Part shown: positions 121 to 29,848 of the stretch, in pieces
Layout of the letters: each line of letters begins with the position of its first letter
Position numbering within the stretch: position 1 is the stretch's first letter
IMG/VR virus record: IMGVR_UViG_3300010885_015247
Location: 1 to 64,000 of that record
DNA from: a virus
DNA length: 64,000 nucleotides
Direction: 5' to 3' (one strand)
Program-made: the position numbers and the translations under genes
Notes under the pieces: model-generated
What the model saw: only the letters and a program-made list of their open reading frames with translations
Databases searched by the model: none
Told to the model about the DNA's origin: nothing

Positions 121-3100
121 ATGCCCTATCCTAATGATGTCAGCGTAAGGACGGTCTTTGGGCAATACCTAAAGAGCTCTGGTCTGGCTGCATCTGGAAC
201 AGTTACATTTACGCCATCTAGTCGTATTGAAGACGCACTTAATGCAACAATTCTTTCTACTCCAATTACTGTAACCCTTAATGCAACTGGTCAATTTACA
301 GTCAGTCTTCCATGTACAGATGATTTAGATCTTAGCCCTCGTGGTTGGTATTACACAGCAACAGTTCGTATTCGTGGAGCTCGTCCTTATTCTTTTAGAT
401 TTTATTTACCAGTAGGCAATGCATCAAGTGTAGATATTACAAAACTCGACACAGTTGAGCCTGTAACTACATCTCCTTTAGGAACAGATATTCCTCGTGG
501 ATTAGCTGGATCTCAAGGACCACAGGGTCCAACTGGACCCGCAGGACCCGCAGGTGGGCCTACTGGAAGTACGGGACCTACAGGTGCAACTGGTGCAACT
601 GGTCCCGGCGTAACTGGTCCAACTGGTGCGACAGGTGCGACAGGTGCAGCAAGTACGGTTACAGGCCCAACAGGTGCGGTAGGACCTACAGGCGCCACAG
701 GTGCGACTGGCGCTGCTTCTACAGTTACAGGCCCAACTGGTGCAACAGGACCAGCAGGTAGTTTTGGTGGAGCAACATTTGATTACACCTTTGCTACAAA
801 TACAACAGACTCAGATCCAGGATCTGGAAAACTTAAGTTTAACAATGCAAGTCTTTCAGCAGCTACATTCATGTTTATTGATGATGAAGCAGATGGAGCA
901 ATTGACCTTCAATCTTTCTTACGCACAATTGATGATTCAACAAGCACACTAAAGGGACACTTCCGCATCGCTCGTAAATCTGATGCAAATTATTTTGGTT
1001 TATTTACAATCACTTCTGTAACAGAAGATACTGGTTATTTTAAAGTCAACTGTGCTTATGTATCTGGTTTAGCAGATAGCTTTAATGCAAATGATGACAT
1101 CATTATTACTTTTGCTCGCACAGGTGATGTTGGTGCACAAGGCCCAACAGGGTCTACTGGTGCAACTGGTGCAACTGGTGCAACAGGTGCAACTGGTGCA
1201 GCTTCTACAGTTACAGGTCCAACAGGTGCAACTGGCCCAACAGGTGCGACTGGCTCTACAGGTGCGACTGGAAGCGCTGGCGCTACAGGTGCTACTGGTG
1301 TTGCAGGACCTACTGGTGCACAAGGCGTTAAAGGTGATGCAGGAGATGTAGGTGCAACTGGTGCAACTGGTGTTGCTGGACCTACAGGTGCTACGGGTGC
1401 GGCAAGCACTGTTACAGGACCAACTGGTGCTACTGGTGTAACTGGTGGAATTGGACCAACAGGTAATGCTGGACCAACTGGTGCAACAGGTGTTGCAGGA
1501 CCTACTGGTGCTACTGGCGCTACAGGTGCAACTGGTGCTGGCGCAACTGGTGCTACAGGTGCAACTGGTGCTCAAGGTGTCAAGGGTGATACAGGAAATA
1601 CTGGTGCTACTGGTGCGACAGGTGCAGCCTCAACAGTAACTGGCCCTACAGGTGGAGCTGGCCCAACAGGTCCTACTGGTGCAACTGGTGCACAAGGTCC
1701 TATTGGTAATTTTGGTGGCGCAAGTTTTGATTACACATTTACAGCTAATGCTGCTCAAGCGGATCCAGGAACTGGAAAACTTCGCTTTAATAATTTAGAT
1801 CTACAGCTAGCAACAAACTTATTTATTGACGATGAGTCTGATGGAGCAATTGATATCCAGCAGTTCCTTCGCACTATTGATGATTCAACAAGCCCTATCA
1901 AGGGTCATATGCGAGTTAGCAATAAAACAGACTCAGCTGACTTTGCACTCTTTACTATTACAGGAACAATTACAGAAAACACTGGGTACTTCACAGTTCC
2001 AGTTTCTTATGTAAGTGGTCTTGCAACATCATTCTCAGATAACGAAGACGTCATTATTACCTTTGCAAGAACTGGTGATGTTGGTCCACAAGGTATTCAA
2101 GGTGTAACTGGTGCGACTGGAGCAACAGGTGCGACTGGTGCAACAGGCCCTGCAGTAACAGGACCTACTGGTGCAGCATCTACTGCAGTGGGTCCTACTG
2201 GTCCGACTGGTCCGCAAGGTCCAGTAGGTGCAACTGGTGCTGATTCAAATGTAGTTGGACCAACAGGACCTTCTGGTCCAACTGGTGCTGGTGCTACAGG
2301 TCCTACAGGACCCACTGGTCCAGGATTAACAGGACCCACTGGTGCTACAGGTGCAACTGGTGCGCCTTCAACAGTAACTGGCCCTACAGGTGCAACAGGC
2401 GCAACTGGTCAAACAGGTCCAAGTGTTACAGGTGCAACTGGTGCAATGGGTGCAACTGGACCAACTGGTGCTACAGGTGCAACTGGACTAAGTATTACAG
2501 GACCTACTGGTGCTACAGGTTCACAAGGTACTCAAGGTATAACAGGACCTACTGGTGCTACAGGTTCACAAGGTACTCAAGGTATAACAGGACCTACTGG
2601 TGCTACTGGTGCAACAGGTGCTACTGGAAATGCAGGTGTGACTGGAGCGACTGGAGCGACTGGAGCAACAGGTGCGACTGGTGCAACAGGCCCAGCAGTA
2701 ACTGGTCCGACTGGAAGTTCAGGTACTGGTGTAACAATTCTTGGTTCTTACGGAAGCCTTGGTGCATTACAAGCAGCACAGCCAACTGGTAATCCAGGAG
2801 ATGGTTATTTAGTATCTGGATCTCTTTATGTTTGGTCAGCAACAACTTCCGCTTGGGTAAATGTTGGAAACATTCAAGGACCAACTGGTCCACAAGGTAA
2901 CTCTGTAACTGGTGCAACAGGCCCAACAGGTGTATCGGGCCCAACAGGTGGTCTTGGTAAATTTGCAGTTATTTCTGATACACCACCAGCAACTCCAAAT
3001 GCAGGTGATGCTTGGTTTAACACTGCTAATGGAAAAACTTATGTTTATTATGATTCATATTGGATTGAAACAGGTGCAGCTCCTGTAGGCCCTACTGGTG

Positions 3101-28325: not shown

Positions 28326-29848
28326 ACATAGTTATTTGTGGAGGCGGGACAGCTGGTTGGCTGTCCGCTTTTATAGTAGCTCGAACAAATCCAGGACAGC
28401 ACAACATAACAGTTATAGAGTCTTCCAAAATTGGGATTGTCGGTGCTGGCGAGGCTTCTAGTGGTTTAATTATTGATATTCTAAGCGGATACTTTTTTCA
28501 TAATAATAATAAACTTAATACAAATAGCGATATTGCAGAGATCGATATCTTAGATTTTATTGATAAAACAGATGGTATCCCGAAATATGCCTTAAAGCAT
28601 ATCAACTGGGCAAAAGATAAGGGATCGTATTTTGCTCCAGTTTCTGCTTCTGAAACAACAAGACACTCCCCTGATCAGCTTTTTAACTATGTCATATCAG
28701 AGTATGGTTTGGATAAAGCTTATCTTTGTAGTGCTATAGGACAAGCATACGATAACAATAAATTCCCGATACAAAAAGATTTTGGATTACATTTTGATGC
28801 CTTTAAAGTTGGAAAATATATTAAAGATTACTTAGTTAAATACTACAGTGTTAAATCTGTAGATTCAGTTATTAAAAACATTAGGATTAAATCTAATGGA
28901 AACATAGAAGGAGTTCTTCTTGAAGACGGCTCAGTTCTAGAAGGAGATTTTTTTATAGACTGTACTGGTATGCAAAGAATACTAGCTAATAAACTGGAAA
29001 TTAAATGGCATTCATATAAAGATTATCTTCCTGTAGATAGAGCTATGCCTTTTCTTGTCCCATACAAGGAAGATAAAATAGTACAACCAGTTACTGAAGC
29101 CGAAGCTTTATCTTCTGGTTGGATGTGGAGAACACCTCTTCTAAGTAGAAGAGGGTGCGGCTACGTTTACAGTAGTAGTTTTATTTCTGAAGACGAGGCT
29201 CAAGCCGAAGCAGAAAAAATTATGGGGCATCCTATAGAACCTATTAGACATCTTAAGTTTGACTCTGGTCGGTTAGAAGAGGTCTGGAAGAAAAATTGTC
29301 TTGTTACTGGTCTTGCAAGCTCTTTTATTGAACCATTAGAGGCCACATCTATCCATGCAACTATTGCTCAAGTATATTCATTCTGTCTAGAACATCTAAC
29401 AAATAAAATTGAAACTACTGTTACAGAAGCAAATATTAAAAATTACAATAAAAATATGATAAAAATGTATGAAAATTTATTAGACTTTACGGTCCTACAT
29501 TATCAAGGTGGGCGTGATGATTCCGAGTTTTGGAGATACATTAAAAATGAAAATTTAGTAACTCCGACTGTTCAAAACTATATTGAAAAAGCAAAAATTA
29601 AGATTCCAACCTATTTATATGACTCAGAGGAGCAGTGGGGAGCTAATAATCTTTGGAAGTGGAGTCTAGCTGGTCTAAATCTTATAGATCCAGAACTAGC
29701 AAGAGAAGAGCTTCTGCAATTTGACATGTACGAGTACTCTAGAAATCACTATAATTTTTTTAGAGATGGTATTAAAAAAGACTTGTTAAATCAAAATTTA
29801 CCTTTTGAGATTGATTTAAATAATCCTATTTCTTTTTATTTGTCTTAG
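28322..29848 (+). CDS. Flavin-dependent tryptophan-halogenase-family protein
   Basis: GGGTAG FAD motif, PKYALKHINW (catalytic Lys position), FFIDCTG, GWMWRTPL, FIEPLEATSI. Confidence 0.88.
   Translation: MNIVICGGGTAGWLSAFIVARTNPGQHNITVIESSKIGIVGAGEASSGLIIDILSGYFFHNNNKLNTNSDIAEIDILDFIDKTDGIPKYALKHINWAKDKGSYFAPVSASETTRHSPDQLFNYVISEYGLDKAYLCSAIGQAYDNNKFPIQKDFGLHFDAFKVGKYIKDYLVKYYSVKSVDSVIKNIRIKSNGNIEGVLLEDGSVLEGDFFIDCTGMQRILANKLEIKWHSYKDYLPVDRAMPFLVPYKEDKIVQPVTEAEALSSGWMWRTPLLSRRGCGYVYSSSFISEDEAQAEAEKIMGHPIEPIRHLKFDSGRLEEVWKKNCLVTGLASSFIEPLEATSIHATIAQVYSFCLEHLTNKIETTVTEANIKNYNKNMIKMYENLLDFTVLHYQGGRDDSEFWRYIKNENLVTPTVQNYIEKAKIKIPTYLYDSEEQWGANNLWKWSLAGLNLIDPELAREELLQFDMYEYSRNHYNFFRDGIKKDLLNQNLPFEIDLNNPISFYLS

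Follow-up and report, generated by a model that had tools for sequence, protein, structure and literature searches.

A candidate SgtA-like glycosyltransferase for the collagen-like fibres of an uncultured freshwater siphovirus

Introduction

Does a phage that encodes collagen-like fibres also encode the enzyme that glycosylates them? The question is raised by a 64,000-nucleotide stretch of viral DNA (hereafter the window), which corresponds to bases 1-64000 of the linear 80.8-kb IMG/VR contig IMGVR_UViG_3300010885_015247 (62% complete). At positions 121-24184, a block of fibre genes including six collagen-like open reading frames (ORFs) is followed, on the same strand, by genes for a subtilisin-type S8 protease, a methyltransferase, two small proteins, a glycosyltransferase (GT) of the GT2-TPR type and a halogenase (Table 1). 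A sequence-only reading of the window had seen in this arrangement a hairy, glycosylated collagen coat encoded together with its own modifying enzymes, and all the genes on which it relied were recovered in place. In the reading proposed here, to which we assign a probability of about 0.6, the block would encode a host-recognition fibre apparatus, composed of six trimeric collagen-like fibres, two giant adhesin-like proteins and small accessory proteins, and the GT2-TPR enzyme would glycosylate the collagen fibres of its own phage.

The glycosyltransferase is homologous to SgtA over its full length

SgtA (CD3350) of Clostridioides difficile is a protein of 358 residues, 10 of them cysteines, in which a GT-A domain (1-260) precedes TPR repeats (262-358). 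Its gene lies immediately upstream of bclA3, which encodes its exosporium substrate BclA3, and in vitro the enzyme adds β-O-GlcNAc to the threonines of GPT/GAT peptides (PMC7157674). An SgtA orthologue was reached by scanning GTDB genomes with the family alignment, followed by an order-wide search started from one match; four full-length matches were fetched. In one genome of 4.26 Mb (G116), an ORF of 358 codons with exactly 10 cysteines (L193:6341-7414) is directly followed by a collagen ORF of 686 codons, the product of which starts with MSRNKYFGPFD and matches the published BclA3 peptides (PMC7157674). Because of its length, its cysteine count and its position directly upstream of a BclA3-matching collagen gene, the shorter ORF is taken as the SgtA orthologue.

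A comparison with SgtA by hidden Markov model had been called for by the sequence-only reading. With the 17-sequence family alignment A3 used as profile, the phage family matches the orthologue with an E-value of 6.2e-48, positions 4-349 of 353 being covered. Direct BLASTP between the window GT and the orthologue gives 23% identity (E 3e-20), residues 1-343 of the former being aligned with residues 2-348 of the latter, collinearly through both domains. The motifs DTGSTD, F..ARN, LD.D, P.HE and FYY.RELY are common to both proteins. These comparisons establish the GT as a full-length homologue of SgtA with the same architecture.

Within the GT, Pfam Glycos_transf_2 matches residues 7-102, weakly, and TPR_2, TPR_19 and TPR_14 are above cut-off, helical repeats being seen at residues 176-359 of the structural model. 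Among 81 homologues, D33, G35, S36 and D38 of the DTGSTD motif are invariant, as are D83 and D85 of the DxD motif, and T34 is nearly so. The AlphaFold model (pLDDT 97.3, pTM 0.92) displays a GT-A domain followed by a TPR superhelix. Over its full length, it is matched best in the PDB by SunS and ThuS, two glycocin S-glycosyltransferases (E 4e-16 to 1e-14, TMq ~0.63). Next come TPR proteins, including the TPR part of GmaR and the TPR domains of OGT, and the polysaccharide GT2 enzymes TarS and TarP are found far behind. When PDB sequences were searched with the family profile, GmaR (1.5e-12) and SunS (2.6e-11) were likewise ahead of any polysaccharide GT2. Since SunS, ThuS and GmaR are the best matches by structure and by profile, the characterised relatives are all protein- or peptide-directed. 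Glycosylation of DNA was also considered as a function and was rejected, because fold, TPR domain and closest characterised relatives all speak for a protein substrate.

Linkage to collagen genes in bacteria and in phages

The best 80 cellular loci encode enzymes that are 44-54% identical to the phage GT over the full length. They belong overwhelmingly to spore-forming Bacillota (among them Lacrimispora, Oscillospiraceae, Flintibacter, Pseudoflavonifractor, Brevibacillus, Desulforamulus and Alkalibaculum), with a few contigs from other phyla. A collagen-like ORF is present within 3 kb of the GT in 55 of these 80 loci. In most cases it is co-oriented and lies less than 200 bp upstream, and the fraction of threonine at its Y positions is typically 0.4-0.99. 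Whole genomes contain about 2-8 collagen ORFs per 4-5 Mb, so that a random 6-kb neighbourhood would hold one about 1% of the time. The triplet usage of the GT-adjacent collagens is GPT 32.6% and GAT 16.6% in bacteria, and GPT 32.2% and GAT 14.5% in the related phages. The bacterial linkage, together with the proven SgtA-BclA3 pair, ties the GT family to Gly-X-Thr (GXT) collagens. In a tree obtained by a quick maximum-likelihood search only and rooted at the midpoint, the phage enzymes form one clade, sister to a Bacillota clade (SH-aLRT 95), the SgtA group being a long-branch outgroup; each of the three has members adjacent to collagen genes. In many Bacillota, a tandem pair of GT2-TPR paralogues lies beside the collagen gene (G006:C1:3377423-3379591, G007:C1:3980490-3982681, L165, L144, L135).

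In IMG/VR, at least 595 loci of the GT family were found, and 93 non-identical loci were examined. Collagen linkage was scored on the 55 loci with at least 4 kb upstream of the GT, and neighbouring genes on 69. A co-oriented collagen-like ORF lies upstream of the GT in 49 of the 55 loci (18/18 at ≥70% GT identity, 31/37 at 50-70%), which bears on the co-occurrence of GT and GXT collagens that the sequence-only reading had proposed to check. The collagen detector is conservative: one locus (L090) was first scored as negative, yet a clear GPT collagen lies there directly upstream of the methyltransferase and the GT. The usual gene order is a giant ALK-domain gene, two collagen fibres with a conserved N-terminal domain, in some cases S8 and then a Methyltransf_24 gene, the GT, in some cases a halogenase, and whiB on the other strand. 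In Actinomycetia phage DSL-LC01, the block reads collagens, giant protein, collagens, halogenase, GT and whiB, with no S8.

Collagen fibres hold the main concentration of candidate acceptor sites

Counting only runs of at least four, the six collagen-like ORFs of the window hold 471 Gly-X-Y triplets, among which GPT (144) and GAT (105) are the main forms, as previously read. The Y position is occupied by threonine in 61% of the triplets and by proline in 2%, and the X position by proline in 42% and alanine in 34%. Across the six fibres, about 290 threonines occupy Y positions. Pfam Collagen PF01391 is above cut-off in four of the six ORFs (E 1e-12 to 1e-16). The lack of a prolyl hydroxylase, already remarked upon for the window, extends to the whole 80.8-kb record, in which no match to the 2OG-Fe(II) oxygenase family PF13640 was found, the record being 62% complete.

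Outside the collagen runs, the capsid, tail tube, Dit, Tal, tape measure and adaptor proteins show no enrichment of the motif G-x-T-[GA]. Such enrichment is seen only in short repeats left over in the collagen proteins and, to a small degree, in the protein p293 (4 observed versus 0.5 expected). The C-termini of the major capsid protein and of the tail-tube protein have neither Ser/Thr-rich tails nor an excess of G-x-T-[GA]. Because capsid, tail tube, Dit and tape measure protein have no such enrichment, the candidate sites for glycosylation are found mainly in the collagen fibres. Judging from this distribution, the collagen fibres are by far the most plausible targets of the GT in the phage.

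Two side observations may be added. The 293-residue protein p293 is encoded at 54755-55636 on the minus strand, between the capsid and tail-tube genes, and no other virion protein outside the collagens has more G-x-T-[GA] than expected. Furthermore, the collagen repeats are broken by a conserved interruption of four residues, GA(A/P)-STVT-GPTG. The window has 21 copies of it, and 106 were counted in 129 collagen ORFs from related phages; 65 bacterial collagens adjacent to a GT are essentially devoid of it. A role as hinge or as recognition element may be considered.

A methyltransferase as a likely partner and a possible second sugar-transfer enzyme

From the S8 gene to the halogenase gene, the post-collagen genes are separated by gaps of -4 to 199 nt. 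The PDB sequences nearest to the methyltransferase are those of caffeoyl-CoA O-methyltransferases, which are cation-dependent. Of the 69 relatives, 32 have a Methyltransf_24 gene within 3 kb of the GT, and in five homologues the two are fused. In the fusions (P0130, P0133, P0150, P0152 and P0171), BLASTP places a domain 31-45% identical to the window methyltransferase in front of GT2-TPR. These fusions come from a set of 68 longer GT homologues in a library of 1.8 billion proteins, of which seven have a Methyltransf_24 domain and others have further GT or methyltransferase domains. As Rosetta-stone evidence, the fusion proteins indicate that methyltransferase and GT act in one pathway, and the methyltransferase is likely to be the partner of the GT.

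A 342-residue protein (p342), encoded on the other side of whiB, may be a second, glycan-extending glycosyltransferase. In DSL-LC01, the gene of its homologue adjoins that of a UDP-galactopyranose mutase; p342 itself has no Pfam or PDB match.

The other enzymes behave differently from what was first proposed. The S8 protease and the halogenase had been regarded as dedicated modifiers of the collagens, a view that the relatives do not bear out. Of 69 relatives, 9 (13%) have S8 within 6 kb of the GT, usually between collagen genes, and 15 (22%) have the halogenase within 3 kb, on either side of the GT, with 28-90% identity and a varying lineage. S8 was dropped as a conserved partner, the DSL-LC01 gene at the equivalent position being unrelated. 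Both are accessory genes that vary between relatives at this genomic boundary, and their membership of the pathway is undemonstrated. Two ORFs not stressed by the sequence-only reading, those of the DUF6171 protein and of a small membrane protein, sit between the methyltransferase and the GT; 6 of 69 relatives have DUF6171 near the GT. A search of NCBIfam left methyltransferase, GT and DUF6171 protein without an informative name.

A proposed model for glycosylation of the fibres

Glycosylated threonine can replace hydroxyproline in stabilising the collagen triple helix, as in the cuticle collagen of Riftia. Considering the properties described above, the following sequence of events may be envisaged. 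Late in infection, the cytoplasmic GT2-TPR enzyme would bind nascent or unfolded fibre chains, the TPR domain being assigned the role of binder by analogy. Using its DxD/metal site and a nucleotide-sugar of the host, which would be UDP-GlcNAc only by analogy, it would O-glycosylate threonines at the Y position. The methyltransferase would most likely O-methylate the attached sugar and p342 might extend the glycan. The sugars would stabilise a triple helix devoid of hydroxyproline, and would alter the adhesion, the protease resistance or the antigenicity of the fibres.

Where the fibres would sit

The sequence-only reading had placed the collagens in a hairy surface layer resembling a spore nap. 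A layer covering the capsid is not borne out by the N-terminal modules of the fibres: that of the 1574-residue collagen matches a tail-fibre family of PHROG and that common to three collagens matches a tail-collar family (Table 1), both labels being annotation-level. A third module is a jelly-roll of about 105 residues, common to the N-termini of two collagens and to a free protein of 109 residues (18149-18460, 22394-22710 and 19879-20208), and it is the most conserved part of those fibres in the relatives (alignment A4). Its model has a pLDDT of 88. Foldseek gave no match at E ≤ 0.001. With VIA-align, the top match is the trimeric capsid cement protein of phage KHP40 (Z 9.2), together with XepA/YomS (8.9-9.0), the lambda tail tip (8.8), TNF/C1q (7.4-7.8) and virus turret proteins, these scores being effectively tied and near the chance range of the tool. 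Capsid cement and tail tip are thus matched equally. Here, the fibres are treated as a host-recognition apparatus; their location on the virion cannot be read from sequence and a coat is unproven.

Alternative explanations

Several observations weigh against glycosylation of the collagen fibres by the GT. In the window, the enzyme is encoded in the same co-oriented block as the collagens and is not adjacent to them, being placed 3 kb and four genes downstream of the last one. No nucleotide-sugar synthesis gene was found. The GT adjoins whiB in 44 of the 69 relatives and is more constantly beside whiB than beside collagen; the boundary between fibre genes and whiB, at which the GT is always placed, also collects unrelated enzymes. 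Much of the viral co-occurrence is synteny inherited in one freshwater actinophage group, where collagen fibres are common anyway. Five records have no collagen near the GT, three of them having collagen elsewhere and two (90 kb and 28 kb) none. In the record IMGVR_UViG_3300044640_001517 (90 kb, 68% complete; L096:319-11755), a 584-residue GT with an extra C-terminal part belongs to an island of five 2OG-Fe(II) oxygenases, a glutathione peroxidase, an AurF-like protein and a methyltransferase, and the whole record has no PF01391 match. In the jumbo phages PaBG and Alexandra, homologues with 29-34% identity are encoded among ligase and head-protease genes, away from collagen. On the bacterial side, 25 of the 80 loci have no collagen ORF within 8 kb. 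The position beside whiB, the oxygenase island and the jumbo-phage homologues, as well as the shuffling in order and presence of Methyltransf_24, halogenase, DUF6171 and membrane protein around the GT, would be expected of an accessory island, made of 'morons' or auxiliary metabolic genes, where the late fibre operon meets the whiB/early region. The GT would then modify some other protein, for instance another virion protein or a surface or regulatory protein of the host, and its adjacency to collagen would be positional. Such an explanation is nevertheless unlikely: in bacteria the 55/80 linkage is mostly adjacent and co-oriented, the SgtA-BclA3 pair is biochemically proven (PMC7157674), and no other protein of the window has comparable numbers of motifs.

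More elaborate readings of the locus can be imagined. In one of them, which appears quite improbable, the boundary island would be a multi-enzyme fibre-tailoring kit, where GT and methyltransferase would build methylated O-glycans on collagen threonines and, where present, the halogenase would halogenate aromatic residues and S8 would mature the fibres; the modified layer may even extend over the capsid. The full proposal of the sequence-only reading, a hairy glycosylated virion coat resembling the exosporium nap with S8, methyltransferase, GT and halogenase as a dedicated maturation set, is favoured by about 24 kb of fibre genes, far beyond the minimal need of a tail and separate from the tail module, on the capsid cement protein as top match of the jelly-roll and on the place of S8 between collagen genes in the relatives that carry it. 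However, that top score is tied with those of lambda tail tip, XepA and TNF/C1q, the other N-terminal modules point to tail fibres and tail collars, and S8 and halogenase are infrequent near the GT, the halogenase moreover being replaced by distant lineages and S8 being missing from DSL-LC01. We therefore hold this proposal to be very doubtful. Finally, methyltransferase, GT and halogenase might tailor a small molecule or a ribosomal peptide of the glycocin type, with the Cys-rich DUF6171 product as candidate peptide. SunS and ThuS do glycosylate small Cys-containing peptides, a Cys-rich ORF of 90 codons and a small membrane protein gene are indeed intercalated between methyltransferase and GT, and flavin-dependent halogenases are typical of secondary metabolism. 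Yet the rarity of DUF6171 near the GT in the relatives, the lack of a transporter or leader-peptidase gene and the pairing of the nearest cellular relatives of the GT clade with collagen genes, not with glycocin operons, make a glycocin-like system extremely improbable.

The fibre block, its surroundings and the host

The features of the locus are collected in Table 1. The fibre block is co-oriented on the plus strand, and from 29826 on the capsid, tail and replication genes are on the minus strand, which agrees with the earlier description of a block separate from, and opposite to, the tail module. On the minus strand, the WhiB regulator gene is followed by recombination and replication genes (AAA_24, exonuclease, helicase, DNA polymerase I), and a siphovirus morphogenesis module encodes a tail fibre with a chaperone-like C-terminus, minor tail proteins, tape measure, head-tail adaptor, major tail protein and major head protein. 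A scan of 17500-31500 for promoters and terminators stayed at chance level and gave no support for an operon structure. A megablast of 18000-30000 against named phages gave no match.

Table 1. Features of the fibre block and of the adjoining genes in the window
Coordinates	Strand	Feature	Basis
121..4845	+	Collagen-like fibre, 1574 aa, 207 triplets, repeated non-collagen spacer domains	Residues 3-116 match phrog_14726 'tail fiber protein'
4862..5566	+	Short collagen-like fibre, 234 aa, N-terminal module common to three collagens	Residues 3-73 match phrog_3449 'tail collar protein'
5580..7457	+	Collagen-like fibre, 625 aa, 79 triplets, N-terminal module as in 4862..5566	Triplet count, PHROG
7457..8374	+	305-aa repeat protein, probably beta-propeller	Weak Pfam DUF6242; 46% tblastn match in DSL-LC01
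8589..9239	+	Collagen-like fibre, 216 aa, 54% collagen, N-terminal module as in 4862..5566	Pfam, triplets, PHROG
9322..12270	+	982-aa fibre/adhesin protein, two He_PIG Ig domains, Gly-rich C-terminus	Pfam He_PIG E 1.4e-17; conserved in relatives
12305..18139	+	1944-aa giant protein, ALK/LTK-type glycine-rich domain	Pfam ALK_LTK_GRD E 3.7e-11; 62-89% identity in relatives
18149..19834	+	Collagen-like fibre, 561 aa, N-terminal jelly-roll, 60 triplets, cupredoxin-like C-terminal domain	Pfam, alignment, model
19879..20208	+	109-aa free-standing homologue of the N-terminal jelly-roll	Alignment A4; phrog_1276
20189..21730	+	Four tandem paralogues, ~125-135 aa each, gene ends overlapping, inside the fibre block	ORF calls
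22394..24184	+	Collagen-like fibre, 596 aa, N-terminal jelly-roll, 71 triplets; last collagen before the enzymes	Pfam, alignment, model
24184..25743	+	Subtilisin-type S8 protease, Asp/His/Ser motifs intact	Peptidase_S8 E 2.9e-34
25770..26354	+	Class I O-methyltransferase of cation-dependent type	Methyltransf_24 E 3e-15, also Methyltransf_3
26554..26826	+	DUF6171 protein, 90 aa, Cys-rich	Pfam E 8.7e-06, just under cut-off
26863..27213	+	Predicted membrane protein, 116 aa	Sequence; homologues near GT or halogenase in few relatives
27243..28325	+	SgtA-like GT2 (GT-A) + TPR glycosyltransferase, 360 aa	DTGSTD nucleotide-binding motif, DxD D83/D85, TPR from ~176
28322..29848	+	Flavin-dependent (Trp-type) halogenase	Trp_halogenase E 1.4e-86
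29826..30305	-	WhiB-family regulator	Pfam E 4.3e-17; block boundary marker, hint of actinobacterial host
32048..33076	-	342-aa protein (p342), possible second sugar-transfer enzyme	BLASTP 23% identity, E 8e-14, to DSL-LC01 gene annotated 'glycosyltransferase'

Besides the collagens, the block encodes proteins of other types. The DSL-LC01 counterpart of the probable beta-propeller protein bears the annotation 'photosynthesis system II assembly factor'. In the relatives, the gene of the 1944-residue ALK-domain protein is conserved directly upstream of the collagen pair. The four tandem paralogues at 20189-21730 have no Pfam or PHROG match. In the C-terminal domain of the 561-residue collagen, a cupredoxin-like pattern GHPF...C..H..M is observed (19430-19770), and the homologous fibre of a relative (L090:8146-9408) has the same pattern (GHPFWIKT...YYICQYHSAMQG).

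Two further observations extend to other regions. A domain of about 45 residues (..ATLTT...HGF..G..V.I.G.....NGTY.IT.VP..TTFTY) is repeated in the C-terminus of the tail-tube protein, in Dit, in a tail protein of 691 residues and in the 1944-residue giant protein (53680-54726, 42805-47494 and 12305-18139). At the far end of the window, a minus-strand ORF of 3810 codons (L111:691-12123, or G000:63691-75123 in the numbering of the contig) has its start beyond the window and its end within it (63691-63999).

The source of the window is an uncultured freshwater siphovirus, the host of which is probably actinobacterial. Its nearest named relative, DSL-LC01, is a lake phage assembled from a metagenome, with a predicted Actinomycetia host (PMC10611076). 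The major capsid proteins of the two are 74% identical; among cultured phages, those of Microbacterium, Arthrobacter and Gordonia have capsid proteins with about 50% identity to that of the window. The G+C content of the window is ~40-45%. The whiB gene, the capsid relatives and the freshwater origin of all the close IMG/VR relatives point to a freshwater actinobacterium as host.

Significance and comparison with known systems

If the collagen fibres are indeed glycosylated by the GT, a widespread and undescribed post-translational modification (glycosylation and perhaps methylation) of phage host-recognition organelles would exist, with at least 595 loci in IMG/VR. The stability of Gly-X-Thr triple helices without hydroxyproline in virions would thereby be accounted for, and a further layer would be added to host range, adsorption and shielding against antibodies or proteases. 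The SgtA-BclA3 pair would then be one case of a broader enzyme-substrate partnership shared by bacteria and phages.

The SgtA-BclA3 pair, the glycosylation of BclA, that of Mimivirus collagen and that of mycobacteriophage capsid and tail-tube proteins are already known. A search of the accessible literature found no paper linking phage collagen-like fibres with such a glycosyltransferase. In Mimivirus, the bifunctional hydroxylase/glycosyltransferase L230 reportedly modifies the viral collagen of the surface fibres via hydroxylysine. By contrast, the record studied here has no PF13640 match, its GT belongs to another family and its predicted acceptor is threonine. The mycobacteriophages come closer with regard to the type of phage. 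In PMC12619734, work by Freeman et al. (2023) is cited according to which their own glycosyltransferases decorate virion proteins, namely the C-terminal extensions of capsid and tail-tube subunits. Those systems, as presented there, resemble ours in that an actinobacteriophage encodes a GT for virion proteins. They differ in the targets, since here capsid and tail tube have no candidate motif and the predicted targets are collagen-like fibres.

Among characterised enzymes, GmaR of Listeria and SunS and ThuS of Bacillus share with the phage GT the fold and the order of domains, with a helical or TPR domain for substrate binding. Their sequences are only ~15% identical to it, and their substrates are different, GmaR acting as an O-GlcNAc transferase on Ser/Thr of flagellin and SunS and ThuS on Cys or Ser of small glycocin peptides. 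The closest cellular relatives are the collagen-adjacent GT2-TPR enzymes of Bacillota such as Lacrimispora, Oscillospiraceae, Flintibacter and Brevibacillus, with 44-49% identity over the full length and a near-identical triplet usage of the neighbouring collagens. These enzymes are cellular and uncharacterised, often occur as a tandem pair, and have no methyltransferase or halogenase beside them, and the collagens lack the STVT interruption.

SgtA itself is very similar in organisation, with 358 residues as compared with 360, an N-terminal GT-A domain with DxD, a C-terminal TPR domain and a gene beside those of GPT/GAT collagens. The two enzymes are nevertheless only 23% identical, the phage clade being sister to a separate Bacillota clade and SgtA a long-branch outgroup. 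Transfer of β-O-GlcNAc from UDP-GlcNAc to Thr/Ser of GPT/GAT peptides is known only for SgtA (PMC7157674), the activity and the donor of the phage GT being predicted by analogy. In addition, the phage GT is paired with a Methyltransf_24 gene, a pairing seen in none of the 80 bacterial loci. It comes from a phage of probable actinobacterial hosts, and its substrates would be virion fibres instead of an exosporium.

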